From Candidatus Limnocylindrales bacterium (GTDB lineage: Bacteria; Chloroflexota; Limnocylindria; Limnocylindrales; CSP1-4): a DNA stretch of 64,000 bases. Shown piece by piece: positions 3,767 to 59,784 of the stretch. The translations under genes were made by a program, and so were the position numbers. Location of the stretch: contig DATGGQ010000039.1 of assembly GCA_035308445.1 (NCBI GenBank), forward strand, positions 16,875 to 80,874, given 5' to 3'. Position 1 is the stretch's first letter, and each line of letters opens with the position of its first letter. Below the pieces are notes generated by a model. It did not search any database. It saw only the letters and a program-made list of their open reading frames with translations, and had not been told where the DNA came from.

Positions 3767-3797
3767 CTCCGGATCATGGACGAGTTCGATCGCGGCG

Positions 3798-3803
3798 TAG
3801 GCT
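3798..3803 (+). promoter_or_regulatory. -10-like hexamer TAGGCT, 7 nt before the GTG start of the arsA-like gene (leaderless candidate)
   Basis: TAGGCT-tcacccc-GTG(3811) with no Shine-Dalgarno in between. The same architecture recurs at nine other genes in the window. Confidence 0.4.
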
Positions 3804-3810
3804 TCACCCC

Positions 3811-5737: not shown

Positions 5738-5738
5738 C

Positions 5739-8056: not shown

Positions 8057-8060
8057 AGGC

Positions 8061-12370: not shown

Positions 12371-12383
12371 GCGAGGTGCGGCC

Positions 12384-14882
12384 GTGAAGGTGCCGCTGTC
12401 CTGGCTCCGGGAGTACGTCGACGTCGACCTCGAGCCGGAGGCCCTCGCGGCCCGCCTGACGCTGCTCGGGATGGAGGTCCAGGGCATCGAGCGTCGGGGG
12501 AGCGAGTGGCGGGACGTCGTCGTCGGCGAGCTGCTGACCGTCGAGAAGCATCCGCGGGCGGATCGGCTGTCGCTGACGACCGTCCGGACCGGCGACGGGC
12601 CGGCCCTCGAGATCGTCTGCGGCGCGACGAACATCGCTCCCGGCCAGCGGGTGCCGGTTGCCCTCCCTGGTGCGGTCCTGCCGGGCGATCGCCGGATCGA
12701 GCGGACCGAGAAGATGGGCGTCGTCTCGAACGGGATGCTCTGCTCGGGTGACGAGCTCGGGCTGACCGGCGACGCCGACGGGATCCTGATCCTGTCCCCG
12801 ACAACGCCGGTCGGGGTGTCGCTCGCGGATCTGTACGGCGACGTCGTCCTCGACGTCGACGTCAAGCCGAACCGCGGCGACGCGCTGTCGATCATCGGCA
12901 TCGCCCGCGAGGTCTCGGCCGTGACCGGTGCGCCGGTCCGCTGGCCGGCAACGGACGTCGAGGAGGGTGGAGGAGCGGTCGCGGACCACCTGGCCGTGGA
13001 CGTCGCGGACACGAGGCTGTGCCCCCGATTCGTGGGCCGCTGGGCTTCGGGAGTGACCATCCGGCCGTCGCCGGACTGGGTCCAGATGCGCCTCCTGGCG
13101 GCCGGCATGCGGCCGGTCAGCAACGTCGTGGATGCGTCGAACTACGTGATGCTCGAGCTCGGCAAGCCGATCCACACGTTCGACGCAGCGGCCGTCAGCG
13201 GCGGTCGGATCGTCGTCCGGCCGGCGAGGGCGGGCGAGCGCCTCGAGACGCTCGACCACGTCGTCCGGGAGCTGGATCCATCGACCCTGGTCATCGCCGA
13301 CCCGTCTGGCCCGATCGGCATCGCCGGCGTCATGGGCGGCGCCGGCTCGGAGATCGGCGAGACGTCGAGGAACGTCGTCATCGAGTCGGCTATCTTCGAC
13401 CCGGTCTCGATCCGCCGGACCGCGTTCCGCTACGCGTTGCGGTCCGAGGCGAGCCTTCGCTTCGAGAAGGGCCAGGAGCTCCGCCTCGCGAGGATCGGTG
13501 CCGACCGGACGGCCCGGCTCGTCCACGAGTGGGCCGGCGGGGAGGTCGCCCGCGGGCGGGTGGACACCAACCCGATGGAGCCGGAGGAGCGCACGGTCGC
13601 ATTCCGGCCGGGTCGCGTGGATCGGCTGCTCGGCACGTCGCTCGGGCCCGGCGAGCAGCACGCCCTGCTGGCGCGCGTCGGCATCACGACCGCCGCGCCC
13701 GGCGGCCCGGTGACCGTGCCCGTCGCCGGTGGAGCGGCGCCCACGACCGTGACCGCGCCCGCGAGCGAGGCCCTCGTGGCCACGATCCCGACGTGGCGCC
13801 GGGACCTCGAGATCGAGGCGGACATCGCCGAGGAGGTCGCCCGCGTCCGGGGCTACGAGCTCACGGCCCCGACGCTCCCGGCCACGGTCCCGCCCGGCTG
13901 GCAACCGTCGCCGCTCGGGCTGCGGGATCGACTCCGGGGCACGCTCGTCGGCGCCGGCCTCACCGAGGCCGTGACGTATGCGCTGGTCTCACGCCGTGAC
14001 CTCGAGGCTTTCGGCTGGACGGTCGCGGACCGGCCGGCCGCGGGCGAGGCCGCCCGGCGCGGCGCCCCGATCGGGGTCATGAACCCGCTCTCGCTCGACC
14101 ATGCCGTCCTGCGCCAGTCGCTCGTCGGCAGCCTGACCGGCGTCGTCTCGACGAACACCCGGCGCGGCAACGCCGACGTGGCGGTGTTCGAAATCGGCAA
14201 GGGCTACGGCCGGCTCGACGACGGCGGAACCGAGTGGTGGCGGCTCGGAATCGCCCTGACCGGCGAGCTCGAGCCGGCGAGCTGGAACCGGGCCGGGCGC
14301 GCGGTCGACGTCGACGACGCGAAGGGCCTGGTCGAGCTGCTCGCCTCCGAGCTGGGGGCCGGTCCCGCGACGTACGAACCGCTCCGCGACGAGCCGATCC
14401 TCCATCCCGGCCGCTCGGCCACGGTCCTGGCGACCTTCGCGGACGGATCCGCGGCCGTCACCGGCGTGGTGGGCGAGCTGCATCCGCGGCTGCTCGCCGC
14501 GCTGGACCTCCGGTTCGAGCGGCTCGTCGTGGCCGAGCTGTCGATCGCCGGCCTCGGCGGCGGCAGCCCGCGGGTGCCGCGGGTCGAGGCGCCACCGCGG
14601 TTCCCGGCCGTCGAGCGCGATCTGGCGGCCGTCGTTCCCGACGCGGTGGCCGCAGGCGCGGTGGAAGCCGTGATCCGCGAGGCCGGTGGTGCGCTCCTGA
14701 CCGACGCTCGCCTGTTCGACGTGTATCGCGGCAAGTCGCTCGACGCCGACGCGCGGAGCCTCGCCTATCGACTCCGGTTCGGGGCATCCGACCGGACCCT
14801 CACCGAGCCGGAGGTCGACGCTGCGGTGGCCGCGATCGTCGTGGCGCTGGGCGACCGGCTGGGAGCTCGCATCCGCGGCTGA
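12384..14882 (+). CDS. pheT: Phenylalanine--tRNA ligase beta subunit
   Basis: ORF 12384..14882 (GTG; MKVPLSWLREYVD). Has the tRNA-binding, B3/4, B5 and FDX-ACB domain order. Confidence 0.95.
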   Translation: MKVPLSWLREYVDVDLEPEALAARLTLLGMEVQGIERRGSEWRDVVVGELLTVEKHPRADRLSLTTVRTGDGPALEIVCGATNIAPGQRVPVALPGAVLPGDRRIERTEKMGVVSNGMLCSGDELGLTGDADGILILSPTTPVGVSLADLYGDVVLDVDVKPNRGDALSIIGIAREVSAVTGAPVRWPATDVEEGGGAVADHLAVDVADTRLCPRFVGRWASGVTIRPSPDWVQMRLLAAGMRPVSNVVDASNYVMLELGKPIHTFDAAAVSGGRIVVRPARAGERLETLDHVVRELDPSTLVIADPSGPIGIAGVMGGAGSEIGETSRNVVIESAIFDPVSIRRTAFRYALRSEASLRFEKGQELRLARIGADRTARLVHEWAGGEVARGRVDTNPMEPEERTVAFRPGRVDRLLGTSLGPGEQHALLARVGITTAAPGGPVTVPVAGGAAPTTVTAPASEALVATIPTWRRDLEIEADIAEEVARVRGYELTAPTLPATVPPGWQPSPLGLRDRLRGTLVGAGLTEAVTYALVSRRDLEAFGWTVADRPAAGEAARRGAPIGVMNPLSLDHAVLRQSLVGSLTGVVSTNTRRGNADVAVFEIGKGYGRLDDGGTEWWRLGIALTGELEPASWNRAGRAVDVDDAKGLVELLASELGAGPATYEPLRDEPILHPGRSATVLATFADGSAAVTGVVGELHPRLLAALDLRFERLVVAELSIAGLGGGSPRVPRVEAPPRFPAVERDLAAVVPDAVAAGAVEAVIREAGGALLTDARLFDVYRGKSLDADARSLAYRLRFGASDRTLTEPEVDAAVAAIVVALGDRLGARIRG

Positions 14883-15551: not shown

Positions 15552-16187
15552 CTGCTGGCCGCCCCGACCCTCGCCGCGGCGCGCTCGCTGCTGGGGTCCC
15601 GGCTCGTCCGCGGCGACCGAGTGGGCCGCATCGTCGAGGTCGAGGCGTACGTCGGGACCGAGGACCAGGCCTCCCATGCGCGCTTCGGGCGGACCGCCCG
15701 GAACGCCGTCATGTTCGGGCCTCCGGGAGTGGCCTACGTGTACCTTGTCTACGGGATGTACGACTGCCTGAACGTCGTCACCGAGCCCGACGGCCGGCCG
15801 GCGGCGGTGCTGATCCGTGCCGTGGAGCCACTCGAGGGCCAGGGCGCCATCCGGCAGGCCCGCATCGACTGGGCGCGGCGCCGGGCGGCCGCGGCCGATC
15901 GCGAGGCGGCCGCCACCGTGGCTCGCATCGAGCCCATCCCGACCGATCGGCTGTGTCGCGGTCCGGGCCTCGTGGCGGCCGGGTTCAGCCTGACCCGGCA
16001 GGACACGGGCATGGACCTGCTCGACCCGGCGTCGCCGGTGCGGATCGAGGCGCCGGCCGCTGGCGACCGGGCGCCGGTGGTTCGAGCCACTCCGCGCATC
16101 GGGATCCTTTATGCCGCGGAGCCGTGGCGGTCCCTGCCGTGGCGTCTGATCGACGCGTCGAGCGGAGCGGTGTCGGGGCCGCGCTGA
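15552..16187 (+). CDS. mpg: DNA-3-methyladenine glycosylase (Mpg/AAG family); start codon unresolved
   Basis: The ORF track starts at GTG 15621 (GRIVEVEAYVG). The in-frame upstream LDRRLLAAPTLAAARSLLGSRLVRGDR is the conserved Mpg N-terminus, yet 15528-15620 contains no ATG/GTG/TTG. CTG 15552 is used as a placeholder. Confidence 0.85.
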   Translation: MLAAPTLAAARSLLGSRLVRGDRVGRIVEVEAYVGTEDQASHARFGRTARNAVMFGPPGVAYVYLVYGMYDCLNVVTEPDGRPAAVLIRAVEPLEGQGAIRQARIDWARRRAAAADREAAATVARIEPIPTDRLCRGPGLVAAGFSLTRQDTGMDLLDPASPVRIEAPAAGDRAPVVRATPRIGILYAAEPWRSLPWRLIDASSGAVSGPR

Positions 16188-16200
16188 CGCGGCCGAGACG

Positions 16201-18606
16201 ATGGACACCCGCTCGCTGGCGCTCCTCGAGTTCCCGCTCATCCGCGAGCGGCTCGCGAGCCACACCGCGTTCGCGCCCGGCCGGCGGCTCGCGGAGTCGC
16301 TCGAGCCCTCGGCCGACCGCGTCGTCGTCGCGAGAGCCCTCGACGAGACCGACCAGGCCCGCGAGCTCCTCACCGAGCGTCGCGGCGTCGGCATCGGCGG
16401 CGCCCGCGACATCGGCGCATGGGTCGACCGCGCAGGCCGCGGCGGCCGCCTTGATCCGGCGCACCTCCTGGACGTCGCCGCGACGCTCGACGGCGCGGCG
16501 AAGCTGAAGGTCGCGCTCGGCGAGGGGCGCTGGCCGCTCCTCCGCGAGCTGGGCAAGCAGCTGCATCCGCTGCCCGCCGTTGCCTCGACGCTCGCGCGCT
16601 CGTTCGATCCGGCCGGCGAGCTCCTCGACACGGCGTCGCCGAGGCTCGGCGGACTCCGCGCCGCCGTCCGCGTCGCGTTCGATCGCCTCCGCCGCCGGCT
16701 CGACACGCTCGTCGCGTCGCCGGAGCTCGCCGGCTCGCTCCAGGAGCCGATCGTGACGCTTCGGAACGGCCGCTACGTGGTGCCGGTGAAGGCCGAGTCG
16801 CGGTCGCGCGTGAAGGGCATCGTCCACGACGCCTCGGGCAGCGGCCAGACGCTGTTCGTCGAGCCGCTCGTGGTCGTCGAATTGGGGAACGCCTGGCGCG
16901 AGGCGCAGGTGGCCGAGCGCGAGGAGGTCGAGCGGATCCTCGACGAGCTGTCGGCGCTGATCGCGGCCAACGGCCCGGCGCTGCGGGCGACGCTCGATGC
17001 CCTCGCCCACTTCGATTTCTGGTCGGCGAAGGCGCTGCTGGCCTCCGAGCTGGACGCCACCCGCGCCGAGACCTCGACGGACGACCGGGTCGTGCTGCTG
17101 TCGGCGCGCCATCCCGGCCTGTCGGGCCGGGTCGTCCCGATCGACGTCCGGCTCGGTGACGGCTTCACCGCGCTCGTCGTCACCGGTCCGAACACCGGCG
17201 GCAAGACGGTGACGCTGCGGACGCTCGGCCTCCTGGCGCTCATGCACCAGGCCGGGCTCCACGTGCCGGCCGCTCCCGGCAGCTCGCTGCCCGTCTTCCG
17301 CGACGTCTTCGCCGACATCGGCGACGAGCAATCCGTCGCCCAGTCGCTCTCGACGTTCTCGGGTCACATGCGCTCGATCATCCGGATCGTCGAAGCGGCG
17401 GGGCCGGGAACGCTGGTGCTGCTCGACGAGCTCGGCGCCGGGACCGACCCGACCGAAGGCTCGGCGCTCGCCCAGGCGCTGCTCGACCACTTCATCCGGG
17501 CCGGTGCGCTGGTCGCGGCGACGACCCACTACGCCGAGCTGAAGGCCTATGCCCACACGACGGCCGGGGCGATGAACGCCGCGGTCGAGTTCGACCTCGA
17601 CACCCTCAGCCCGACGTACCACCTGACGATCGGGCTGCCGGGTGGATCCCAGGCGTTCGCGATCGCCGAGCGGCTCGGCCTGCCCGAGCGGCTCGTGGCC
17701 GACGCCCGATCGCGCCTGACCGAGAACGAGCTGGCCTTCGAGGCCACCCTCGCGCGGATCCGCGAGACCGAGGGCGAGACCGCCGACGCGCTCGAACGGG
17801 CGCGGTCCGCGGAAGCCCGCGCGGCTGACGCCCTCCGGACCGCGGACGAGGAACGTCGCCGCGCCCGACGCGAGCGCGACGACGTCACCCGGCGTTCGCG
17901 CGAAGAGGCGGAGCAGATCATCGTCGACCTCCGCGATGAGCTCGAGGCGGCGCGTCGACAGCTCGAGCGCGGCTCGCTGACCGTGCCCGCGATCGACGCC
18001 GTTCTGGGTCGCGCCGACGAGCAGCTGGGCCGGCTCCCGCTTCCCGATGACACGGACGACGCCGACGCCCCGGCCCTCGCCTCAGATGCCACGACGGCCG
18101 GGGCGTCGCGCGGCTCGCGCCGAACCCGCGTCGCGCGCGTGTGGCAGCCTGGCCAGCGCGCCCGCAGCCGCTCTGGCGGCTGGGAGGGTCGGGTCGCGGC
18201 CCTGGATCGGACCGGCAAGCGCGCCACCCTCGAGGCCGGGGCGATGCGGATCAGCGTCCCGCTCGACGACCTCGAACCGGTCGATGGCGCGGCTGCGGCG
18301 CGGTCACTCCCCGCCGCCGGCGGCACGAACGTCGCCGCGCTCCGGCTCGAGCGGGCCCAGGCCGTGCCGCTCTCTCTCGACCTCCGCGGCGCGCGGGTCG
18401 ACGAGGCCCTGGCCGCGCTCGACGCCTACCTGAACGACGCGTCGGTCGCGGGTCTCGACCGGGTGACGGTGATCCACGGCCACGGGACCGGGGCGCTCCG
18501 CGACGCCGTCCGCAGCGAGAGCGCGGGCCACCCGCTGGTGAGATCGGTGCGGGCGGGGGAGCGGGGCGAGGGCGGCGACGGCGTGACGGTGGTCAGCCTG
18601 GGCTGA
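16201..18606 (+). CDS. mutS2: Endonuclease MutS2 (MutS domain V ATPase plus C-terminal Smr domain)
   Basis: ORF 16201..18606. Walker A VVTGPNTGGKTVTLRT, a coiled-coil region, and the Smr tail LDLRGARVDEAL...VIHGHGTGALR. Confidence 0.9.
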   Translation: MDTRSLALLEFPLIRERLASHTAFAPGRRLAESLEPSADRVVVARALDETDQARELLTERRGVGIGGARDIGAWVDRAGRGGRLDPAHLLDVAATLDGAAKLKVALGEGRWPLLRELGKQLHPLPAVASTLARSFDPAGELLDTASPRLGGLRAAVRVAFDRLRRRLDTLVASPELAGSLQEPIVTLRNGRYVVPVKAESRSRVKGIVHDASGSGQTLFVEPLVVVELGNAWREAQVAEREEVERILDELSALIAANGPALRATLDALAHFDFWSAKALLASELDATRAETSTDDRVVLLSARHPGLSGRVVPIDVRLGDGFTALVVTGPNTGGKTVTLRTLGLLALMHQAGLHVPAAPGSSLPVFRDVFADIGDEQSVAQSLSTFSGHMRSIIRIVEAAGPGTLVLLDELGAGTDPTEGSALAQALLDHFIRAGALVAATTHYAELKAYAHTTAGAMNAAVEFDLDTLSPTYHLTIGLPGGSQAFAIAERLGLPERLVADARSRLTENELAFEATLARIRETEGETADALERARSAEARAADALRTADEERRRARRERDDVTRRSREEAEQIIVDLRDELEAARRQLERGSLTVPAIDAVLGRADEQLGRLPLPDDTDDADAPALASDATTAGASRGSRRTRVARVWQPGQRARSRSGGWEGRVAALDRTGKRATLEAGAMRISVPLDDLEPVDGAAAARSLPAAGGTNVAALRLERAQAVPLSLDLRGARVDEALAALDAYLNDASVAGLDRVTVIHGHGTGALRDAVRSESAGHPLVRSVRAGERGEGGDGVTVVSLG

Positions 18607-18663: not shown

Positions 18664-21429
18664 TCAGCTCGGGACGGGAAGGAGCGTCGGCAGCGGGCCC
18701 GTGGACGGCGAAGGCGTCGGCTTGCCATGGGTGGGGGTCGGCTGGGGCGTGCCGCTCGGGCCGGGCGTCGGGCAGGGCCCCGGGGTCGCGCCGGGTGGTC
18801 CGCCGCCCTGGCCGCCGCCGGGGTTGCACTGCTGGACGGGTGAGCAGGTCTGGGTCGGCGCGAACTTGCCGCCCCAGGTCGCGCCGAACGGCGTGAAGAA
18901 CGCGTTGTAGAAATACGAGGTCCGATTGTTGTCCGGGCCGCCGATCACGCCCGGCCCCTTGGCCGCTCGGGCCGCCCACTCCTGCGTGTACGGCTGCCAC
19001 TGCGGGAACTGCTGCTCGACCTGGCTGAAGTCGAGGAATGGCTCCTGGACCATGGGGCCGGTGCAGCCGTTCTGCCAGAGCAGGCCCGTCGCCTGATCAA
19101 TGTCAACGAGCGTGTGGATGTTGTCCGTTCGCGTCGGGACGGTGCCCTTGATGAAGAGCTCGTTCACCGTCGCGACGGTGTACGGGCCCGGCAGGAGCCC
19201 GCTGAACGCGTCGACCTTGGCCGTCACGAGGCCCGATGGTGCGTGGAAGTTGGCGATCGGGAGGCCCTGGCTGATGTCGGTCAGGATCCGCGACCAGACC
19301 GGTGCGGACGACGCGAGCGACAGGACGTGGCTGTTCGGCGTCGAGTCGGAGTTGCCCATCCAGACGCCGACGGCCAGGGCCGGCGCGTTCGGATCCGACG
19401 GTGGGGCGAGGTAGCCGTAGGCGGCGACGTCCTTGTTGTTATCGGTGGTGCCCGTCTTGTAGGCCGCCGGCCGGCGACCCTGACCCTTCTGGATGATCTG
19501 CCATTCCGCCCACGGCGGGTTGACCGACTTGATCGTGTTCCCGTTCAGGATGTCGGTGATGATGTACGAGGCCTGTGGCGTGTCGACGCGCTTGCCCTGC
19601 GCCGGCGGCGTCCCCGGGACGGGGTAGACCGGCTTGCCGCTCGGGTCGGTCACGGACAGGAGCGTCGTCCGCGGCATCAGGACGCCGCCGTCGGCGATGG
19701 CCGAGTACGCGCTGAGCATGTCGGCCGGGTGCGTCTCCAATGTCCCGATCGACTGCGACACGACCGGGACCGTGCCCGGCAGGAAGTCGAGCCCGAACTC
19801 CTGGAAGTGGGCGAAGGCGTTCGGCAGCCCGATCTCGAGACCCGCTTTTATGGACGAGATGTTCTGCGAGAACTGGAGAGCGATCCGGAGGCGCTCCGGT
19901 CCGCGCTCGAGCTTGTCGTCCTCCTGCGGGTAGTAGGGGGCCGCCTTCGTCCCGAAGTTCGTGACGACGTGCATGAACATCGACGCCGCGGTCAGGGTGT
20001 GCTGGTCGATGCCGGTGATGTAGTTGAGCGGCTTGATGGACGATCCCGGCTGGCGGTAGCCGTCATCCCAGACGTCGAACTGCGGCTGGAACTTGGCGTT
20101 GCCGGTGAGGTAGTAGCCCGCGCTGCCGCCGATCGCGAGCACCTGGCCAGTTCGGTAGTCCTCCACCCCGGCGGCCCCGTTGAAGATGTTCTTGCTGCGA
20201 AGGTTCTGGAGCCACGGCCAATCCGATCTCGGGATCTTCAGCTGCGTCCAGATCTTCTGCGGGTTCGACATGTGCGTCGTCTGAGCCGCGACGTACAGCC
20301 ACTTCTCGACGACCTGCTGCATGTTCCAATCCAGCGTTGTCGTCACGGAGTAGCCGCCCGTATCCAGTTGTTGGCACCCGCCTGTGGTGTCGGTCCCGCA
20401 GATCACGGAGGAGAGCTCCTGGCGGACCTGCCAGACGAACTGGGGGGCCTTCCACTGGGGCACTGCCTGAGAGACAAGGATGACCGGCTCCTGCTCGGCG
20501 GCGTCGTAGTCAGCGATCGTGTGCTTCGAGCCGGAGAGGACGCTGCGCGTCTTCATCAGCTCGAGGACGGTGTTCCGGCGCTGGACGATCGGGGACGTGG
20601 CCGGCACGACGAGCTGGATGTCCGCCGGCGGGCAGTCGCCGCCGTTGGGGGGCGTGATCGAGCATTGCTCGACGGCGTTCCGGACGAGGTCGTACTGGGT
20701 CGGTGATTTCGGGATCGAGGCGATGATGGCGTCCTGGGCGAGATCGAGCTGCGAGAGGTCCTTGCCGAAGTAGCCCTTGGCCGCCGCGGCGACGCCGTAC
20801 GACTGGTTGCCGTAGAAGTTCTGGTTCAGGTACGCGGTGATGATCTGCTGCTTGCCGGCCGTGCCGGGGAACTCCTGGGTGAGCCGGATCGACTGGATGA
20901 TCTCCCGGATCTTGCGGTCGTAGACCGAGGCGCCGGTGTCGGGCGGCAGCAGCCGGGCTCGGACGAGCTGCTGGGTGATGGTCGAGCCGCCGCGGGGATG
21001 GCCGGTCAGCGTGTCGATCGTGGCCGAGAGGAAGCCTCCGACGTCGAAGCCGGGGTTCGTCCAGAAGTCCTTGTCCTCGATCGCGGTCGTCGCGTCGATG
21101 AGCTCGGGCGGGATCTGGTCGAACGTCACCAGCTGGCGGTTCTGGTCACCGAACGTGGCGAGCAGGACCTGGCCGGTCCGGTCGTAGATCTTGGTCGGCT
21201 GGTCGAACGACAGGTTCGAGAACGCCTGGGCCGGGTCCGGCAGGCCGTTCGAGTAGTAGGCATAGGCGCTGACCGTGGCCACGAAGCCGACGCCGCCCAG
21301 CACAAGGAAGCTGCCGAAGAGCAGAACGGGGATCGCGAGTGCGGCGCGGCGCCCGGCGCCACCTCCACGTCCGCGACGAGCGGCTCCGTTCCGGCGGTGC
21401 CGCGATCGCCTCTGGAGGGCGGTTTGCAT
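18664..21429 (-). CDS. Class A penicillin-binding protein (GT51 transglycosylase plus transpeptidase) with Pro/Gly-rich C-terminal tail
   Basis: ORF 18664..21429. N-terminal TM segment, GT51 motifs (EDKDFWTNPGFD, GGSTITQQLV), transpeptidase SSIKP, and a tail PGGGQGGGPPGATPGPCPTPGPSGTPQPTPT. Confidence 0.9.
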   Translation of the reverse strand: MQTALQRRSRHRRNGAARRGRGGGAGRRAALAIPVLLFGSFLVLGGVGFVATVSAYAYYSNGLPDPAQAFSNLSFDQPTKIYDRTGQVLLATFGDQNRQLVTFDQIPPELIDATTAIEDKDFWTNPGFDVGGFLSATIDTLTGHPRGGSTITQQLVRARLLPPDTGASVYDRKIREIIQSIRLTQEFPGTAGKQQIITAYLNQNFYGNQSYGVAAAAKGYFGKDLSQLDLAQDAIIASIPKSPTQYDLVRNAVEQCSITPPNGGDCPPADIQLVVPATSPIVQRRNTVLELMKTRSVLSGSKHTIADYDAAEQEPVILVSQAVPQWKAPQFVWQVRQELSSVICGTDTTGGCQQLDTGGYSVTTTLDWNMQQVVEKWLYVAAQTTHMSNPQKIWTQLKIPRSDWPWLQNLRSKNIFNGAAGVEDYRTGQVLAIGGSAGYYLTGNAKFQPQFDVWDDGYRQPGSSIKPLNYITGIDQHTLTAASMFMHVVTNFGTKAAPYYPQEDDKLERGPERLRIALQFSQNISSIKAGLEIGLPNAFAHFQEFGLDFLPGTVPVVSQSIGTLETHPADMLSAYSAIADGGVLMPRTTLLSVTDPSGKPVYPVPGTPPAQGKRVDTPQASYIITDILNGNTIKSVNPPWAEWQIIQKGQGRRPAAYKTGTTDNNKDVAAYGYLAPPSDPNAPALAVGVWMGNSDSTPNSHVLSLASSAPVWSRILTDISQGLPIANFHAPSGLVTAKVDAFSGLLPGPYTVATVNELFIKGTVPTRTDNIHTLVDIDQATGLLWQNGCTGPMVQEPFLDFSQVEQQFPQWQPYTQEWAARAAKGPGVIGGPDNNRTSYFYNAFFTPFGATWGGKFAPTQTCSPVQQCNPGGGQGGGPPGATPGPCPTPGPSGTPQPTPTHGKPTPSPSTGPLPTLLPVPS

Positions 21430-21438
21430 GCGGCGGCG

Positions 21439-21444
21439 ACGATA
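21439..21444 (-). promoter_or_regulatory. -10-like TATCGT (extended TGg) 9 nt before the PBP ATG
   Basis: Minus strand reads catgGTATCGT-cgccgccgc-ATG(21429). No SD within 15 nt. Confidence 0.35.
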
Positions 21445-21509
21445 CCATGCGCCCGTGAGGGACTCCTTCCCCCATCGGTTGGCCTGACGACGCCGACATT
21501 GCAGTTCGT

Positions 21510-22847
21510 GTGACGCGAGTGACGACGTTCGATCCCGGGCCGGCCGGCCTCCTCGCGGAGCTCCGCTGGCGCGGCATGTTCCACGCCGCTTCCGACGGCC
21601 TCGAGGCGCGCCTCGCGACCGGCCGTCCGATCACGGGCTACAACGGCTTCGACCCGTCGGGCCCGTGGCTCCACATCGGCCACCTCGTGCCGATCTTCGG
21701 GCTCATCCATCTCCAGCGCCACGGAGGCCGTCCGATCGCCGTGGTCGGCGGGGGGACGGGCATGATCGGCGACCCGTCGGGGACCTCGAACGAGCGCCGC
21801 CTGCTCGATCGCGAGACGCTCGAGGCGAACGTCGCCTCGCAGCGCGACCAGCTCGAGCGCTTCCTGGATTTCTCGGGCGAGCGTGGCGCGGTGATGGTGA
21901 ACAACCTCGACTGGCTCGGTCCGCTGCACCTGCTCGACTGGCTCCGGGACGTCGGCAAGCACTTCACGATCCCATACATGCTCGCCAAGGACTCGGTCAC
22001 GACGCGGCTCGAGCGCGGCCTGTCGTACACCGAGTTCAGCTACATGCTCATCCAGGCGACCGACTTCGCCCATCTCCGCCAGACCATGGGCGTCGAGCTG
22101 CAGATGGGCGGCGCCGACCAATGGGGCAACATCACCGCCGGGCTCGAGCTCATCCGGCGGCAGGGCATCGGCGCCTCGGAGCAGACGGGATCTGATGCTG
22201 CTCGCGGCTCCGATGCCGGCGACGCGGCCTTCGCCCTCGCGTATCCGCTCCTGCTCGCCCCATCCGGCACGAAGTTCGGCAAGAGCGAAGGCGGCGACAC
22301 GGTCTGGCTGCACGAGTCGCAGACCTCGCCGTTCGCCTTCTACCAGCACTGGCTGAACACCGACGACCGCGACGTCTCGATCTACCTGCGCTGGTTCACG
22401 ACCTTCCCCCCGGACGAGATCGAAGGTCTCGAGGCGGAGGCGGCCGCTCAGCCCGAAGCACGGGCCGCGCAGCGGGCGCTGGCTAACGACCTGACGGCCC
22501 GCGTCCATGGCGTGGACGCCGCGCGCGAAGCGGCCGATGTCTCCGCCGCGGCGTTCTCCGGCGGCCCCATCGAAGACCCGCGGATCCTCGCGGCGCTGCA
22601 CGGAGCGACCGACGGGTTCGACTTCCGGGCCGTCGAAGCTCGAGCCGGCCTCGTGCCGCTCCTCGTCGCCTCGGGGACGTTCGCGTCGAACGGGGAGGCG
22701 CGCCGGATGATCGCCGCGGGCGGCCTCTCGGTGAACGGCGTCCGCGTGGCCGACGCGAGCGAGCCGGTCCCGACGCCGATCGCCGGGGAGTGGCTGGTGA
22801 TCCGGGTCGGCAAGCGCCGCCTGCGGGTGGGTCGCCAGGTCGGCTAG
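21510..22847 (+). CDS. tyrS: Tyrosine--tRNA ligase
   Basis: ORF 21510..22847 with HIGH (LHIGHL), KMSKS (KFGKS) and a C-terminal S4 domain. Confidence 0.95.
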   Translation: MTRVTTFDPGPAGLLAELRWRGMFHAASDGLEARLATGRPITGYNGFDPSGPWLHIGHLVPIFGLIHLQRHGGRPIAVVGGGTGMIGDPSGTSNERRLLDRETLEANVASQRDQLERFLDFSGERGAVMVNNLDWLGPLHLLDWLRDVGKHFTIPYMLAKDSVTTRLERGLSYTEFSYMLIQATDFAHLRQTMGVELQMGGADQWGNITAGLELIRRQGIGASEQTGSDAARGSDAGDAAFALAYPLLLAPSGTKFGKSEGGDTVWLHESQTSPFAFYQHWLNTDDRDVSIYLRWFTTFPPDEIEGLEAEAAAQPEARAAQRALANDLTARVHGVDAAREAADVSAAAFSGGPIEDPRILAALHGATDGFDFRAVEARAGLVPLLVASGTFASNGEARRMIAAGGLSVNGVRVADASEPVPTPIAGEWLVIRVGKRRLRVGRQVG

Positions 22848-24045: not shown

Positions 24046-26127
24046 TCAGTGGCCCGCGGCCGCCTCGTCCTTGCGGTGCGCGGCGATGACCTTCTCGGCG
24101 AGGTGCGCGGGCACCTCCTCGTACCGGTCGAGGGTTGACTTGAACGTGCCGCGTCCGCCGGTGATCGACCGCAGCTCGGTCGCGTACGAGAAGAGCTCGG
24201 ACTGCGGCACGGAAGCATGGATGACCTGCATCCCGTCGGTCGTGTCCATCCCGAGAACCCGCCCGCGCCGACCGTTCAGGTCGCGGTTGACCTCGCCCAT
24301 GAACTCCTCGGGGACCCGGACCGAGACCGTCATGATCGGCTCGAGGAGGACGGGCTTCGCCTGCAGGACGCCCTCCTTCAGGGCCATCGACGCGGCGATC
24401 TTGAACGACAGCTCGTTCGAGTCGACCGCGTGGTACGAGCCGTCGTACAGCGTGGCCCTGAAGTCGGACAACGGATACCCGGCGAGCACGCCCTCGGCGG
24501 CGGTCTCGCGGATGCCCTTCTCGACGCCCGGGAAGAAGTTCTTCGGGACCGAGCCGCCGACGACGCGCTCGGCGAACGCCACGCCGCCGTCCGGGTTCGG
24601 CTCCAGCTCGAGCCACACGTCGCCGAACATCCCGTGCCCCCCGGTCTGCTTCTTGTAGCGACCATGGACCTGGGTCTTGCCGCGGATCGACTCGCGGTAC
24701 GGCACGCGTGGCGGATGGGTGACGATCGCCGAGCCGAACTTCCGCTTGAGCCGCTCGATGATGACCGCGGTCTGGGCCTCGCCGATCGTCCGGAGGATCT
24801 GCTCGCCGGCATCGCTCCGTTCGAGTCGGGCCGACGGCTCCTCGTCCAGCATCCGCTGGAGGGCCGGTCCCATCTTGTCGAGGTCGGCCTTCGTCTCGGG
24901 CTCGATCGCGACGCTCAGTGTCGGCTCCGGGAACTCGAGATCGGGCAGGGTGAGCGGCTTCTCCTTCGAGGACAGCGTGTCGCCGGTGGCCGTGACCGCC
25001 AGCTTGGCGATCGCCCCGATCTCGCCGGCCTCCAGCTCGCCGATCGGCTCCTGGTCCTTGCCGTGCAGCAGGAGCAGCTGGCCGATCCGCTCGTCGGCGT
25101 CGCGCTTCTGGTTCCAGACGTGCGCCTGGGAGTGGAGCGTGCCGGACAACACCCGGAGGTAGGTCAGCCGGCCGACGAACGGGTCCGCGGCCGTCTTGAA
25201 GACGCGAACAAGGAGCGGACCGTTCGGGTCCGGCCCGACCTCGACCTCGGCGCCGCTCCGGTCGCGGGCCTTGACAGGGCCTTCGTCGGCGGGGGAGGGC
25301 AGGTAGCGGACGATCGCGTCGAGGAGCGCCTGCAGCCCGGTGCCGGTGTGGGCGCTGCCGACGAGGACCGGCGCGAGGATCGACTCCTTGACGCCCTTGC
25401 GGAGGCAGGCCTCGAGCTCCGGGTCCGTGATCTCCTCGCCGTCGAGGTACTTCATCAGCACCTCGTCATCGGCCTCGGCGGCCGCCTCGAGCAGCTGGTC
25501 GCGGCGGCGAGCGACCTCGTCGCCGAGGTCGGCCGGAACCGGGACCTCGACGTCCCTGCCGCCCTCGGTCCGGTACGCCTTGCGGTGGACGAGGTCGACG
25601 TACCCGCTGAACGCGTGGGCCGCGCCGATCGCGATCTGGAGGGGCGCGATCTTGTTCCCGAAGGACGACCGCAGGGCGTCGAGCGCCCGGTTCGGATCGG
25701 CGTTCTCCTTGTCGGCCTTGTTGATGAAGAAGCAGGCCGCCGTGCCGGAGCTGCGGCCGAGGGCCACGGCCTGCTCGAGCCCGGCCTCCACCACGCCGGT
25801 CGCGTCGATGACGAAGATCGCGCCGTCGGCGGCGTGGAAGCCGGAGATCATCTCGGCAGCGAAGTCGAGGTAGCCCGGCGTGTCGACGATCGTGATCCGC
25901 GTGCCGTCGGCTTCGAACGTCGCGACCGCCAGGCTCAGTGACTCCCGGCGCTTCTGCTCCTCGGGCTCGAAGTCGAGGTGCGAGCTGCCGTCGTCGACCC
26001 TGCCGACCCGGCCGACCGCGCCGGATCGAAAGAGGAGCTGTTCGCCGAGCGTCGTCTTGCCGGAGCCCGCATGGCCGGCCAGGACGACGCTCCGAAGGTG
26101 GGGAAGGTCGACGCTCTTCATGGTCAT
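24046..26127 (-). CDS. Elongation factor G paralogue (EF-G2-like GTPase)
   Basis: ORF 24046..26127. G1 AGHAGSGKTTL, DTPGYLDF, NKAD, and domains II-V. It is not in an rpsL-rpsG-fusA-tuf context. Confidence 0.85.
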   Translation of the reverse strand: MTMKSVDLPHLRSVVLAGHAGSGKTTLGEQLLFRSGAVGRVGRVDDGSSHLDFEPEEQKRRESLSLAVATFEADGTRITIVDTPGYLDFAAEMISGFHAADGAIFVIDATGVVEAGLEQAVALGRSSGTAACFFINKADKENADPNRALDALRSSFGNKIAPLQIAIGAAHAFSGYVDLVHRKAYRTEGGRDVEVPVPADLGDEVARRRDQLLEAAAEADDEVLMKYLDGEEITDPELEACLRKGVKESILAPVLVGSAHTGTGLQALLDAIVRYLPSPADEGPVKARDRSGAEVEVGPDPNGPLLVRVFKTAADPFVGRLTYLRVLSGTLHSQAHVWNQKRDADERIGQLLLLHGKDQEPIGELEAGEIGAIAKLAVTATGDTLSSKEKPLTLPDLEFPEPTLSVAIEPETKADLDKMGPALQRMLDEEPSARLERSDAGEQILRTIGEAQTAVIIERLKRKFGSAIVTHPPRVPYRESIRGKTQVHGRYKKQTGGHGMFGDVWLELEPNPDGGVAFAERVVGGSVPKNFFPGVEKGIRETAAEGVLAGYPLSDFRATLYDGSYHAVDSNELSFKIAASMALKEGVLQAKPVLLEPIMTVSVRVPEEFMGEVNRDLNGRRGRVLGMDTTDGMQVIHASVPQSELFSYATELRSITGGRGTFKSTLDRYEEVPAHLAEKVIAAHRKDEAAAGH

Positions 26128-26210
26128 CGGCCGATGAAACCTCGCTCATTCGGGGGCTTCCAGGAAGGGTTCGAAGGGGTCCGGCCATCATAGTCCGGGA
26201 GATCGGCCGG

Positions 26211-47960: not shown

Positions 47961-48071
47961 CCCGGACCTCGCCCGCGACGACGCAGGCAGCCCCTATGCT
48001 CGGCTCGCGTGCGCATGGACAACCCTCCTCGGTCAGCTCCTGACGGAGGGTACGGCGCGACGGGCAGGGAG

Positions 48072-48947
48072 ATGACGATGCGCGTCGCCGCCGATCCGCT
48101 CACCCAGTACCTGACGACGGCCGACGGCCGGACGCTCTGCTACGCGGACTGGGGCGCCGCGCCCGGGGGCGCACCCGATGGCTATCCGGTCCTCAGCCTG
48201 CACGGCAGCGCCGGCTGCCGGCTCGGCGTGCGATCGCCGGAGCAGGTCGGGGCGCTCGGCGCGAGGCTGATCACCTACGACCGGCCGGGCTACGGCCGCT
48301 CGCATCGGCGCGGGCCGGGGACCGCGGTCGTCGATCACGTGGTGGACGTCGAGGCCGTCGCCGACGCGCTCGGCATCGACGAGTTCGCGATCACGGGCGG
48401 CTCGGGTGGCGGCCCGCACGCGCTGGCCGTGGCGGCGCGCCTTCCCGGACGCGTCTCGCGGCTCTCCAACTTCGCGGCGCTGGCGCCGTTCGACCTCATG
48501 GGCTTCGAGGCGTACACCCGCGACCAGGACGACTGGACGAAGGACTACCTCGCGAAGGTCCGCGAGAGCGAGGCCGTCTGCGAGGCCTTCTTCAAGGGCA
48601 TGGACGACGAGATGCGGGGCGAGCTTGCCGCCGACGACCCGATGCGCGAGGCCTCCCTCGAGCAGTGTCGCGACGGTGTGATGGGCTGGGTGGACGACGA
48701 GCGGGCCCTCCAGGCGCCATGGGGCTTCGATGTCGGCGACATCACCGCGCCGACGGTCGTCTACGCGAACCCGAACGATCCCACGACGCCGCCGAACCAC
48801 GCCGAGTGGCTGGTCGCGCGCATCCCGGGCGCCGTCCTGGTGACATCGACGAACGCCAATGCCCACGTGGCGATCGACGATCCCGATCGCTGGCGGCAGG
48901 CGCTCTACTCGTGGCTGGTCCAGGGTGGCACCCCGGCCGTTCCCTGA
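48072..48947 (+). CDS. Alpha/beta-fold hydrolase
   Basis: ORF 47700..48947 trimmed to ATG 48072 (or 48078). HGSAGC; nucleophile elbow variant GGSGGG. Confidence 0.8.
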   Translation: MTMRVAADPLTQYLTTADGRTLCYADWGAAPGGAPDGYPVLSLHGSAGCRLGVRSPEQVGALGARLITYDRPGYGRSHRRGPGTAVVDHVVDVEAVADALGIDEFAITGGSGGGPHALAVAARLPGRVSRLSNFAALAPFDLMGFEAYTRDQDDWTKDYLAKVRESEAVCEAFFKGMDDEMRGELAADDPMREASLEQCRDGVMGWVDDERALQAPWGFDVGDITAPTVVYANPNDPTTPPNHAEWLVARIPGAVLVTSTNANAHVAIDDPDRWRQALYSWLVQGGTPAVP

Positions 48948-48961
48948 CGGCGCGTGGGGCA

Positions 48962-51900
48962 ATGGCTACGCTGCGCATCCATATGGTCTGCTCGAACTGC
49001 GGAGCCACCAATCCGGCAGCCTCGAAGTTCTGCTCCGAATGCGGCACGCCGCTGAGCCAGAACTGTGCGGCCTGCGGCTCCCCATTGGCGTCGGGCGCCC
49101 GGTTCTGCTCGAACTGCGGCACGCCGACGAGCGCCGCCACGGGCTCGGTCATCCCCCGGACGGCCCCCGCCACCCCTGCCCCGGCGAGCGGCAACGGCGC
49201 CGCGGTCGCCGAGCGACGCCTGGTATCGGTGCTGTTCGCCGACCTCGTCGGGTTCACCACCCTGGCGGAGGGCCGCGACGCCGAGGAGACGCGCGACCTC
49301 CTGTCCGGCTACTTCGAGCAGTCGCGGACGATCATCGAACGCTACGGTGGCACGGTCGAGAAGTTCATCGGCGATGCGGTCATGGCCGTCTGGGGCGCCC
49401 CGATCGCGCGCGAGAACGACGCCGAGCGGGCGGTCCGCGCCGCCCTCGACCTCGTGGGCACGATCCCCTCCCTCGGCCCCGGGCTCCAGGCGCGCGCGGG
49501 CGTCCTCACCGGCGAGGCGGCGGTGACGCTCGGCGCGACGAACCAGGGCATGGTCGCCGGGGATCTCGTCAACACGGCGAGCCGCCTCCAGTCGATCGCC
49601 CCGCCCGGGACGGTCCTCGTCGGCGAGAGCACCGAGCGATCGGCGAGCTCGGCGATCGTGTTCGAGCCGGTCGGCGACCAGGTGCTCAAGGGCAAGGAGG
49701 CACCGGTCCCGGCGTACCGGGCGCTGCGGGTCGTCGCCGAGCGTGGTGGGCGTGGCCGGTCGGACCGGATCGAGGCTCCGTTCGTGGGCCGCGACAACGA
49801 GTTCCGGCTCATCAAGGAGCTCGTCCACGCCACGGGCAAGGATCGCCGGGCTCGCCTGGTCTCGATCACCGGCGTCGCCGGGATCGGCAAGAGCCGCCTG
49901 GCCTGGGAGCTGAACAAGTACCTCGACGGGATCGCCGAACGGATCCTGTGGCACGCCGGCCGCTCCCCGGCCTACGGCGAGGGCATCACGTTCTGGGCCC
50001 TGGGCGAGATGGTTCGAGGACGGGTCGGTCTGCTCGAGACCGACGACGAGCACACGACCCGCCGCAAGATCTCGGCCGCCGTGGCCCGCTGGGTCCCGGT
50101 CGAGTCGGAGCGATCGTGGATCGAGGGCGCGCTGCTGGCGCTGCTCGGCTTCGACACCGCCGCGACCCCCAGCCGCGAGGAGCTGTTCTCGGCCTGGCGG
50201 ACGTTCTTCGAGCGGATCGCCGACACCGGCACCGCCATCCTCGTGTTCGAGGACATCCACTGGGCGGATCCCGGTCTGCTCGACTTCATCGACCACATCC
50301 TCGAGTGGAGCCGGAGCGTCCCGATCCTCATCGTGACCCTGGCCCGGCCTGAGCTCTTGGAGCGCCGGCCGACGTGGGGTGCCGGGCGCCGGAACTTCGT
50401 CGCACTCGACCTCGAGCCGATCTCCGATGCCTCGATGCGCGAGCTCCTCGAGGGCCTCGTCACGGGGCTGCCCGAGCCCGTCGTCAAGGCGATCGTCGCC
50501 CGGGCCGACGGCATCCCGCTCTATGCGGTCGAGACCGTCCGGATGCTGGTGGCCGAGGGTCGCCTCGCGGAGGTCGACGGCCGCTACCGGCCCGTCGCCG
50601 AGATCGAGGCCCTGGCCGTCCCGGAGACCCTCCAGGAGCTGATCGCAGCGCGTCTCGACTCGCTCGAGACCGCCGATCGAACCGTCCTGCAGGATGCGGC
50701 GGTCCTCGGCCAGAGCTTCACCGTGGGCGCCTTGGCCGCGGTCTCGGGGCTCGATGCCGCGGCCGTCGAGGGGCGCCTGCGCACGCTCGTCCGCCGGGAG
50801 CTGGTGGTCCTCGACACCGATCCGCGCTCCCCGGAGCACGGCCAGTACGCGTTCGTCCAGGCGCTCATCCGCGAGGTCGCCTACGGCACGCTCTCGAAGC
50901 GCGACCGTCGGTCGCGGCACCTGGCCGCGGCCCGCTACTTCGAATCGCTCGGCGAGGAGGAGATCGCGGGCGCGCTGGCCGCGCACTACCTCGCCGCGTA
51001 CCGGACCTCGTGCGGCGACGATGAGGCCCAGGCGCTCGCGGCCCAGGCCCGGATCGCCCTGAAGGCGGCCGCCGCCCGAGCCGCCTCGCTCGGCAGCTAC
51101 GAGCAGGCCGCCTCGTACCTCGTCGAGGCGATCGAGGTCACCTCGGATCATGCCGAAGCCGCCGACCTCCTGGAGCGGGCCGGAGCGGCCTTCGGCCAGG
51201 CGGCCGAGATCGATGCCGCCGAGACGCACCTCCGGCGGGCCATCGCCCAGCGTCGCGAATCGGGCGACAACCTGGGCGCCGCCCGGGCGATCGGCATCCT
51301 CGGCCAGGCCCTCGGCAACGGCTACCGGCGACGCGAGGCAATCGAGCTCCTGCGGCCCGCCGTCGAGGAGTTCGCCGGCCTCGGCGACGACCCCGCGCTC
51401 GCGTTCCTCGAGCACGAGCTGGCCCGGTCGCAGTGGCTGCTCGGCGACGGCGAGGGCGCCATCTGGCTCGCCGACCGGGCGCTCGCCCGGGCCGAGCGCA
51501 TCGACGCCGTCGCCCAGATCGCGGACACGATGGTCTCGAAGGGCTCGATCATCGCCGAGGGCGGTCGCTACCACGAAGGGTTCGCGCTGCTCGAGGCCGG
51601 CAACCGGCTGGCCGAGGAGCTCGGGCTCGCGAACACGCAGGCGCGCGCGCTCCTGAACATCGGCGCGTCGAGCTTCGGTCGCGATCCGGTGCTGGCCCTG
51701 GACTATGCCCGGCGTGCCCTCAGCCTGGCCCGTCGACTCGGCCTGCGGGCCCAGCTCGACGTGGCGGCGGGCAACGCCCTCGAGGCCGCGGCCCGGGTCG
51801 GCGAGTGGGACTGGGTCGAGATCGAGGGTCGGCAGATCCTGGACCAGGAGGTCGCGGAGGCCCAGCGCCAGTCCGTCCTGCGTGGCATCGAGGAGGTGCG

Positions 51901-52540
51901 GGCGTTCCGCGGCGAGCCTGTCGACGACCTGCTCGACGAGCATCGACGGCTCGTTGAGGGCGGCGAGAACACGGCGGTCTCGAACTATCACGGTGCGCTG
52001 GCGCCGGCCCGCCTCGCGGAAGGGCGGTTCGCCGACGCCGCAGCCGACTGGGTCAGGTCCGCCGAGCTGAACGCGACGAACGAGGCGACCGACCTGCCGA
52101 AGGCCGCCCGCGCCTGGCTCTGGGCGGGCAACCGGGCCGAGATGGAGCGTGTCGCCCGGCAGTTCGTGGACCTTCGGGCCCACGGCCCGGCCTCGGCGGC
52201 TTCCGTCACGACGATGCGCGCGGCCACCGCGGGCCTGGACGGCAGGCGCGACGAGTCGCTGGCGCTGTACGCGGACGCGCTCGCGAAGTGGTCGGCGGCC
52301 GGCCTGCCCATCGATCGGGCAATGGCGGCGATCGACATGATCTTCGTGCTCGGTCCCGATGAGGCGGCCGCCCGAACGGCGGCCGAGGAGGCCCGGGCGA
52401 CGTTCGAGGAGCTGCGGGCCGAGAAGCTGATCGCGATCCTCGACCGGGCGCTGGCCGGTGGATCCGTCGGCCCGACCGAGGCGCCTCGCGGCGCGGGCGC
52501 TCCGGCGAGGGCAGCCGGCTCGGAGCCTAGGACAGCCTAG
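48962..52540 (+). CDS. Multidomain signalling protein: double zinc ribbon, class III adenylate/guanylate cyclase, AAA/STAND ATPase, and TPR-like repeats
   Basis: ORF 48665..52540 trimmed to ATG 48962. Four CxxC pairs (CSNCG...CSECG...CAACG...CSNCG). Cyclase core LVSVLFADLVGFT...KFIGDAVMAVWG. Walker A GVAGIGKSRL. Long helical-repeat C-terminus. Confidence 0.88.
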   Translation: MATLRIHMVCSNCGATNPAASKFCSECGTPLSQNCAACGSPLASGARFCSNCGTPTSAATGSVIPRTAPATPAPASGNGAAVAERRLVSVLFADLVGFTTLAEGRDAEETRDLLSGYFEQSRTIIERYGGTVEKFIGDAVMAVWGAPIARENDAERAVRAALDLVGTIPSLGPGLQARAGVLTGEAAVTLGATNQGMVAGDLVNTASRLQSIAPPGTVLVGESTERSASSAIVFEPVGDQVLKGKEAPVPAYRALRVVAERGGRGRSDRIEAPFVGRDNEFRLIKELVHATGKDRRARLVSITGVAGIGKSRLAWELNKYLDGIAERILWHAGRSPAYGEGITFWALGEMVRGRVGLLETDDEHTTRRKISAAVARWVPVESERSWIEGALLALLGFDTAATPSREELFSAWRTFFERIADTGTAILVFEDIHWADPGLLDFIDHILEWSRSVPILIVTLARPELLERRPTWGAGRRNFVALDLEPISDASMRELLEGLVTGLPEPVVKAIVARADGIPLYAVETVRMLVAEGRLAEVDGRYRPVAEIEALAVPETLQELIAARLDSLETADRTVLQDAAVLGQSFTVGALAAVSGLDAAAVEGRLRTLVRRELVVLDTDPRSPEHGQYAFVQALIREVAYGTLSKRDRRSRHLAAARYFESLGEEEIAGALAAHYLAAYRTSCGDDEAQALAAQARIALKAAAARAASLGSYEQAASYLVEAIEVTSDHAEAADLLERAGAAFGQAAEIDAAETHLRRAIAQRRESGDNLGAARAIGILGQALGNGYRRREAIELLRPAVEEFAGLGDDPALAFLEHELARSQWLLGDGEGAIWLADRALARAERIDAVAQIADTMVSKGSIIAEGGRYHEGFALLEAGNRLAEELGLANTQARALLNIGASSFGRDPVLALDYARRALSLARRLGLRAQLDVAAGNALEAAARVGEWDWVEIEGRQILDQEVAEAQRQSVLRGIEEVRAFRGEPVDDLLDEHRRLVEGGENTAVSNYHGALAPARLAEGRFADAAADWVRSAELNATNEATDLPKAARAWLWAGNRAEMERVARQFVDLRAHGPASAASVTTMRAATAGLDGRRDESLALYADALAKWSAAGLPIDRAMAAIDMIFVLGPDEAAARTAAEEARATFEELRAEKLIAILDRALAGGSVGPTEAPRGAGAPARAAGSEPRTA

Positions 52541-59079: not shown

Positions 59080-59784
59080 CTAGCCGAGGCGCCAGAACTC
59101 GCCGGTCAGCCCGAGCCGATCGAGGATCGCCTGGTTCTGCTCGCGGATGTGCGGCTGCCAGTCGGGTGACAGCCGGTCCGACCACCAGGCGTTCGCGAGC
59201 TCGGCGAGCTTCGTGATCGGGATCGTCGTGCCCGGAGACCGATCGCCGAGCCAGCGCTGGACGTGGGCTTCCGACCGGAAGACGAGCATCGTCGATCAGG
59301 TGAAGCCGATGTCCGACCACCACTGGGTCGCGGGGACGAGGATGTGGAAGACCGAGCCCGGATCGGTCGGCCGGCCGTCCCGGACATCCAGGTCGACGGG
59401 CTCATCGCAGTCGGCGCAGGTCGTGTGGATCGTCGAATCGACGTGGAGCGCTGCCCCGATCCCGAAGGCGTCCCAGCCGCAGTTCGCGAACCACCGCCGC
59501 CCGTCCGCCTCGACGACGAACGGCGTCTCGACCACCGAGAACGGGTTGAGCATCCGGATCCCGCCCGCTCCGTCGAGGACGAGCGCGTGGGCGTCGTGGA
59601 GCCGCCGCCACGCGGCCGGGACCGCTTCGGAGGCGATCCCGGTTAACGCAGCAACCTCGGCCGGGGTCGGCGCCTGGCCCAGCTGGACGAACAGCCGGTA
59701 GGTCGCTTGCCGGACGGCGAGGTCGTCGGGCGTCATCGGTCGGTCGTCAGGCTCGATCGAGCCAGGCACGCACTCCCGCGACAT
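59080..59784 (-). CDS. MerB-like alkylmercury (organomercurial) lyase family protein with in-frame TGA (candidate selenocysteine) at 59296-59298
   Basis: ORFs 59296..59784 and 59080..59289 are in one frame, separated only by TGA-TCG-ACG. NCGWDAFG matches MerB WC(96)ALD(99)TL. GFT-U-STMLVFRS matches MerB SFC(159)CHVHFFAS. A SECIS-like hairpin lies downstream. Alternative start at ATG 59736. Confidence 0.7.
59262..59298 (-). promoter_or_regulatory. Candidate bacterial SECIS element (recoding signal)
   Basis: The mRNA reads UGA-UCGACGAUGCUCG-U-CUUCC-GGUC-GGAAG-C. It forms a 5-bp stem (59268-59281 on the + strand) with a GGUC tetraloop starting 19 nt after the UGA, and a bulged U on the 5' side. 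The E. coli fdhF SECIS has a GGUC loop 18 nt after its UGA and a bulged U. Confidence 0.5.

Follow-up and report, generated by a model that had tools for sequence, protein, structure and literature searches.

A MerB-superfamily gene interrupted by a conserved UGA and followed by a SECIS-type hairpin: a candidate second selenocysteine branch in soil Chloroflexota and Actinomycetota

Is a UGA inside a MerB-like gene of a Limnocylindrales bacterium a stop codon, or is it a codon for selenocysteine (Sec)? The locus lies in a 64,000-nucleotide stretch from a Candidatus Limnocylindrales bacterium (contig DATGGQ010000039.1 of assembly GCA_035308445.1), referred to here, at its whole length, as the window. 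On its minus strand an open reading frame (ORF) at 59784..59299 runs into a TGA (59298-59296), which is followed by TCG ACG and then by the ATG of a second ORF, 59289..59080, all in a single frame. The answer proposed here is that this UGA is very probably read as Sec, giving a 218-residue enzyme of the MerB superfamily. The gene is a candidate selenoprotein gene because it combines a conserved UGA, a coding frame downstream of it, homologues with cysteine at the same place and a hairpin constrained at the RNA level, which together are the standard bacterial signature. How strong is each of these elements, and what else could explain them?

The first question is whether there is one gene or two. 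The frame 59736..59080 spans 218 codons and the UGA is its sole interruption. The true start is almost certainly ATG 59736 (MTPDDL...), judging from the homologues, which all begin M-T/D-P-x-D-L; this ATG lies ten bases past the stop of an upstream DinB-like gene. The complete gene, 59080..59736 (minus strand), would accordingly consist of 218 sense codons from Met1 (59736-59734) through Sec147 to Gly218, with a TAG stop at 59082-59080, and the length of 234 residues given in the original prediction is wrong. The claim that the two ORFs are one gene interrupted by UGA fared better. Against the Pfam MerB model (PF03243, gathering threshold 27 bits), the N-terminal ORF alone scores 57.7 bits and covers model positions 1-80 of 126, whereas the read-through product scores 91.6 bits and covers positions 1-124, essentially the whole domain. 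Because reading through extends the match in this way, both ORFs are parts of one domain. The 71 codons after the UGA (59083..59295, minus strand) supply the C-terminal third of the MerB domain and a conserved tail, ...LGLTGxFWxLG.

Where does the UGA fall in this domain? In HMMER searches the best sequence match in the PDB is MerB2 (5C17; E = 6e-11), with plasmid MerB next. The alignment to the PDB MerB places Cys86 and Asp89 (Cys86-Gly-Trp-Asp89, codons at 59470..59481, minus strand) on Cys96 and Asp99, and the in-frame UGA (59296..59298), codon 147, on Cys159, so that the alignments first made by eye are upheld; the UGA column also aligns with the equivalent cysteine of MerB2. Cys86, Asp89 and the UGA column are invariant in the family alignment, the first two within an N-C-x-W-D motif. 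Structure prediction points to the same fold. An AlphaFold model of the Cys homologue P0002, 61% identical to the window protein, has a pLDDT of 72 and a pTM of 0.62, and its sole significant matches in the PDB are 11 MerB structures (E <= 1e-6, TM about 0.5). By sequence, the protein belongs to a clade of its own within the MerB superfamily. It also carries a CxxC (Cys107 and Cys110, 59407..59418, minus strand) that is kept in 95-96% of 106 orthologues and may serve to hand on metal or to support the structure; three Acidimicrobiia forms (L027-L029) are without it.

Conservation of the UGA was followed through an orthologue DNA set of 109 loci, of which 80 are metagenomic (mostly soil) and 29 come from genomes of Limnocylindrales, other Chloroflexota, Gaiellaceae, Acidimicrobiia and related metagenome-assembled genomes (MAGs), covering three bacterial classes and protein identities down to 38%. 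TGA stands at the column in 108 of the 109 loci (29/29 genome loci and 79/80 metagenome loci); the sole exception, L059, has TAG, and TAA occurs in none. In the genome loci the TGA is followed by about 71-74 in-frame codons that end in the conserved tail. Among 106 distinct near-full-length sequences, the window included, TGA is found in 105 and TAG in one. An open frame past a TGA is not rare at 72% G+C, but its conservation over 109 loci is far beyond chance. Within the 106 sequences, codon positions 1/2/3 have nucleotide diversities of 0.235/0.199/0.430 past the UGA against 0.262/0.268/0.490 ahead of it, and the post-UGA region has no in-frame stops, whereas its other two frames contain 162 and 62. 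The region 3' of the UGA thus bears the marks of translation under purifying selection and is as strongly conserved as the upstream frame. Two single-base variants of the Sec codon, both with an intact hairpin, were seen: the TAG of L059 (790-843) and a TGG (Trp) in the homologue L114 (255-950; protein P0231). They reflect either recent mutation, inactivating or altering, or errors of sequencing. One MAG, CAVURB01, has two copies of the UGA gene on separate contigs (L004 and L019), and two long-read MAG loci, L019 and L026, contain frameshift-like stretches resembling assembly indels.

A further mark of a bacterial selenoprotein gene is a stem-loop close behind the UGA, the selenocysteine insertion sequence (SECIS). 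The rule for bacterial SECIS elements in the bSECISearch literature is an apical loop about 16-37 nt from the UGA with a G in the first loop positions. The minimal hairpin of Escherichia coli fdhF, GGUUGCA-GGUC-UGCACC, has its loop 18 nt past the UGA. The window has a hairpin of this type, G-(U)-CUUCC [GGUC] GGAAG-C, at 59267..59283 (minus strand), with the core stem-loop CUUCC-GGUC-GGAAG at 59281-59268 and the loop at 59276-59273. Its loop begins 19 nt past the UGA, so the predicted fdhF-like GGUC hairpin at the right distance was borne out. Like the E. coli element it sits inside the coding sequence 3' of the UGA and has a GGUC tetraloop on a short G+C-rich upper stem; unlike it, the upper stem of the window clade has five invariant pairs. 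A bulged U, offered in the original prediction as a further likeness, did not hold up as a feature of the family. In the window G59283 is able to pair with C59267, leaving U59282 bulged, and the bulge recurs in the GUC...GCN variants, whereas many orthologues have a perfect 7-bp stem. A longer lower stem proposed by RNAfold (GACG/CGUC) was rejected on inspection, as it is not kept in the orthologues.

Is the hairpin more than a by-product of the protein sequence? The five core pairs are paired in 100% of 104 distinct sequences; the changes seen in them are U-A to U.G in 21 sequences and a compensatory U-A to C-G in one (L023). The two outer pairs covary (C-G in 41, G-C in 12). The observed pairing percentage and the covariation score were each reached by 0 of 500 shuffles, and sliding the register lowers pairing from 89% to 35-63%. 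The codons tell the same story. The stem-loop is encoded by Phe-Arg-Ser-Glu codons, in which Arg is CGG in 106/106 and Ser is TCG in 105/105 sequences, while at each of six further conserved Arg columns 5-6 different codons occur (codon entropy 1.6-2.0 bits). The hairpin Glu is GAA in 80 and GAG in 23, the opposite of the G-ending preference elsewhere (Gln is CAG in 95 and CAA in 2). In L105, L106 and L108 the Glu has become Gly (GAA to GGA) with pairing retained as U.G. Synonymous codons are frozen inside the hairpin only, and the hairpin is held by RNA-level constraint at synonymous sites. Given this synonymous-site structure, its presence in UGA forms only, the canonical distance and the G-first loop, the stem-loop qualifies as a putative bacterial SECIS, and binding by SelB is predicted.

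That the hairpin belongs to the UGA and not to the protein is seen in homologues that have cysteine instead. Three full-length homologues (P0002-4) have Cys exactly at the UGA column, and four more distant ones (P0172, P0182, P0206 and P0239), found via the C-terminal piece, have it there as well. Set beside the TGA of 108 of 109 orthologous loci, these seven proteins give the Cys/Sec pairing that the original prediction had proposed to look for. Of the five Cys forms with available DNA (L030, L031, L032, L115 and L116), none has the hairpin; at the hairpin codons L031, for example, reads TTT CGC TCC GAG and L115 reads TTC CGC GAC GAG. In L032 (174-833; the Cys form P0002, with TGC) a decayed remnant, CUUCC-GGUC-UGAAA, is retained beside the TGC, which suggests a recent Sec-to-Cys conversion, and the other four show no trace.

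How would decoding and catalysis work? The hairpin just 3' of the UGA, within the coding sequence, would be bound by the SelB.GTP.Sec-tRNA(Sec) complex, which would compete with release factor 2 and bring Sec into the A site of the ribosome. Sec147 would then join Cys86 and Asp89 in a pocket matching Cys159, Cys96 and Asp99 of MerB. By analogy with MerB, a carbon-metal(loid) compound may be bound via the Cys/Sec pair and its C-metal bond cleaved by protonolysis with the Asp as proton donor, the selenolate acting as a stronger, lower-pKa ligand than a thiolate would. The catalytic triad argues for such a reaction, in which carbon-metal bonds are protonolysed as in MerB and Cys and Sec act as the pair of ligands. 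The substrate may not be an organomercurial, because neither a mer nor an SAO locus (the nine-gene locus of the Sec-containing relative SaoL, discussed below) is nearby: none of merR, merT, merP and merA neighbours the gene, no ABC transporter, efflux or 8Fe-9S genes of the SAO locus are neighbours either, and the context is variable. Classical mercury resistance is doubtful because MerA is absent. A bolder proposal is that a hitherto unrecognised selenoenzyme is very widespread among the largely aerobic Chloroflexota and Actinomycetota of soils and cleaves carbon-metal(loid) bonds independently of mer operons, for instance in the demethylation of methylmercury or of some other organometal; this must be called unlikely at present. 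If it were true, selenium supply would directly control an unaccounted microbial organometal sink in soils, and the view that aerobic bacteria rarely keep selenoproteins would be countered.

Several observations weigh against a Sec-containing MerB-like enzyme at this locus. The folding energy of the window hairpin on its own is ordinary compared with shuffles (z = 0.34), so its significance comes from the comparative data. No Rfam family matches the hairpin, and a permissive threshold on the region gave chance matches only. The bulged U is important for binding of E. coli SelB and is not conserved in the orthologues. No conserved partner gene that would point to a substrate appeared over the 109 loci, either by tblastn of the window neighbours or when the flanking ORFs were clustered all against all. 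The great strength of Hg-Se bonds makes product release hard to picture where MerA is missing, which leaves a role as classical organomercurial lyase uncertain. Finally, selA, selB, selD and a gene for tRNA-Sec were found neither in the window nor in the related DNA examined (653 kb); as only a small part of each genome was covered, this last point is better regarded as neutral. ARAGORN and Rfam returned only a tRNA-Val from the window, and neither ARAGORN on all loci nor Rfam on nine large loci gave a tRNA-Sec. With E. coli SelA, SelB and SelD as queries, tblastn retrieved nothing but GTPases resembling EF-G or Tet(M), located in the window and L078, and the EF-G-like GTPase of the window is not SelB. 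A search for other selenoprotein genes, by same-frame ORF junctions in the window and by a scan of the fetched DNA for TGA followed by a GGU-loop hairpin, returned only the MerB-like family. Literature treating Limnocylindrales together with selenocysteine was not found. Sec decoding and unusual 8/4 tRNA-Sec species are known from the literature in both Chloroflexi and Actinobacteria, which is support at the level of the phylum.

Could the UGA be recoded to something other than Sec? A SelB-like delivery of Cys by a tRNA-Sec-like tRNA(Cys), or a hairpin-stimulated near-cognate read-through with Trp or Cys, would fit the conserved frame, as the inserted amino acid is not readable from sequence data alone. 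Unusual tRNA-Sec-like tRNAs have been reported from Actinobacteria and Chloroflexi (PMC5389517), and the homologue with TGG keeps an intact hairpin. The Cys forms are the obstacle. These relatives use UGC or UGU and have lost the hairpin, so a costly route to an ordinary residue is unparsimonious, and the maintenance of UGA plus hairpin in more than 100 lineages points to a residue that is not otherwise encodable. Besides, the GGUC loop equals that of a bona fide SelB-binding SECIS, and SaoL, with Sec at this very position, is a direct precedent. An amino acid other than Sec is therefore improbable.

Still less probable is that the UGA is an ordinary stop, leaving a 146-residue N-terminal fragment, alone or with a separately initiated 69-residue peptide, in a split or decaying gene. 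This is how gene callers annotate it, and the databases seem to agree at first sight. A homologue search of 5.8 billion proteins gave 1514 clusters, and the closest hundred-odd homologues are nearly all about 146 residues long (146-165), ending ...DIGFT; the 69-residue C-terminal piece, searched against 1.84 billion representatives, retrieves mostly orphan ORFs of about 70 residues. In the window, too, an ATG stands two codons past the UGA. But what would such fragments do? Neither piece would contain the catalytic residue column. The fused Cys forms keep the Met two codons past the UGA just as well, which makes it a structural residue and not a start signal, and L029 has no ATG, GTG or TTG in its first 14 downstream codons. 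An ordinary stop does not account for the nearly exclusive use of TGA, gives no role to a hairpin frozen at synonymous sites, and is at odds with a downstream frame as conserved as the upstream one over three bacterial classes, which excludes a pseudogene. The worry in the original prediction that homologues might be naturally split here is thus answered by purifying selection downstream, by orthologues that lack a restart codon and by the position of the UGA on an essential residue. The orphan ORFs of about 70 residues are the miscalled downstream halves of the gene. Public protein collections also hold wrong-frame or antisense ORF calls over the gene (P0230, P0218, P0184 and P0251; antisense in 88 loci), and their appearance as 'homologues' is a typical artefact of high G+C. 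The idea that a TGC or TGT was misread or misassembled as TGA is effectively refuted by the 108 occurrences of the TGA in independent assemblies from many studies and technologies, and nothing specific favours an error beyond the fact that single-base variants such as TAG in L059 and TGG in L114 do occur. Decoding of the UGA as Sec remains the reading preferred here.

What surrounds the gene? It ends a minus-strand run that encodes an MFS transporter, an SDR protein, a glyoxalase/VOC protein, a DinB/MDMPI_N protein and the MerB-like protein, and it is convergent with a membrane protein gene. A 10-kb Logan contig that matches the contig of the window has the identical gene order. The DinB, VOC and SDR genes had been taken as a detoxification context, but this arrangement is particular to the window genome and is not conserved at the other loci. 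The largest cluster of flanking ORFs is an artefact, made of antisense ORFs of the MerB-like gene itself. Across the wider family a metal-related context was seen just once, for the distant Cys form P0239 (L116/L117; 313-657, 1-316), which adjoins a cation-efflux gene and an ArsR-type HTH_5 regulator. Two metagenome contigs carry a transfer-messenger RNA gene on the downstream side of the MerB-like gene, at a distance of 3-5 kb (L068:13593-13956 and L081:15611-15831), probably a coincidental synteny within one lineage. The window region itself is ordinary chromosomal DNA rich in housekeeping genes. Ordinary chromosomal genes occupy 3439-5016, 5619-6803, 7893-9920, 12189-14882, 16150-18606, 18664-21630, 21459-22847 and 24046-26145, and the products encoded there are an ArsA-like ATPase, proline racemase, threonyl-tRNA synthetase, the phenylalanyl-tRNA synthetase beta subunit, MutS2/Smr, a class A penicillin-binding protein, tyrosyl-tRNA synthetase and the EF-G-like GTPase. 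An ORF of about 1,500 codons on the plus strand (48044-52540) encodes zinc ribbons with adenylate/guanylate cyclase and AAA_16 ATPase domains. Similar proteins are encoded close to the MerB-like gene at 12 further loci and are common in these genomes; a functional link to the MerB-like gene probably does not exist.

If the Sec reading is right, a fair number of public records are affected. Hundreds to thousands of database entries would be wrong (1514 protein clusters and at least 562 metagenome stretches), with the gene called as a 146-residue 'alkylmercury lyase' that lacks the catalytic residue and, separately, an orphan ORF of about 70 residues. No NCBIfam model covers the clade, and NCBI and JGI annotations still truncate it, as in P0019, a 146-residue 'organomercurial lyase'. 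A selenoprotein would be added to phyla with small known selenoproteomes. The short, almost invariant SECIS with its E. coli-type GGUC loop would be a convenient candidate for tests of heterologous Sec insertion, and the Sec forms, the Cys forms and the Cys form with a decayed SECIS (L032) would make a clean series for the study of Sec/Cys exchange.

How does the protein compare with the known members of its superfamily? With MerB and MerB2 (EC 4.99.1.2; PDB 3F0P and 5C17) it shares the Pfam domain, the fold (via the model of the Cys homologue), the Cys...Asp spacing and a third chalcogen ligand at the Cys159 column. Identity is about 15-21%, and the NCBIfam MerB equivalogs score it well below their cut-offs (37.0 against 193 bits for NF009710, 32.2 against 200 bits for NF033555). 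Unlike these enzymes it would have Sec in place of Cys159, and it has no Cys160, an extra conserved CxxC and a conserved C-terminal tail; its gene in the window is chromosomal, among housekeeping genes, and is without merR, merT, merP or merA neighbours.

The closer parallel is SaoL (NF040728; Haft & Gwadz 2022, bioRxiv 10.1101/2022.07.06.499078), a MerB-like organometallic lyase selenoprotein that is also listed in reviews of the prokaryotic selenoproteome (PMC9312934 and PMC13188914). Its Sec162 occupies the position of MerB Cys159 (bioRxiv 10.1101/2022.07.06.499078), and the premise of novelty in the original prediction, which knew of no described Sec-containing MerB-like enzyme, is therefore incorrect. 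Is the window protein simply another SaoL? The two share the PF03243 superfamily, a UGA at the Cys159 position (encoding Sec in SaoL and very probably here), the counterparts of Cys96 and Asp99, truncation at the UGA in databases and the existence of a rare Cys variant. The differences are several. The SaoL hidden Markov model gives the window protein 46.7 bits and P0002 47.4 bits against a cut-off of 140 bits. SaoL has a C-U motif whereas the window clade has T-U, as [F/Y]-T-U-[G/S/A] in all orthologues, and about 71 residues follow the Sec here compared with about 50 in SaoL. SaoL belongs to the nine-gene SAO locus of anaerobes (Firmicutes, spirochaetes and Deltaproteobacteria); the genes of the window clade stand alone, their neighbours vary, and they occur in Chloroflexota (Limnocylindrales) and Actinomycetota (Gaiellaceae, Acidimicrobiia) from soil. 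In score, motif, locus and hosts, then, the clade falls outside SaoL. An independent Sec-bearing MerB branch would widen the case for Sec at a metal-binding position as a recurrent solution in organometallic chemistry. The window clade is thus not the first Sec-MerB but, with its UGA read as Sec, a second Sec branch of the MerB superfamily, unannotated, widespread and distinct from SaoL in both taxonomy and genomic context.

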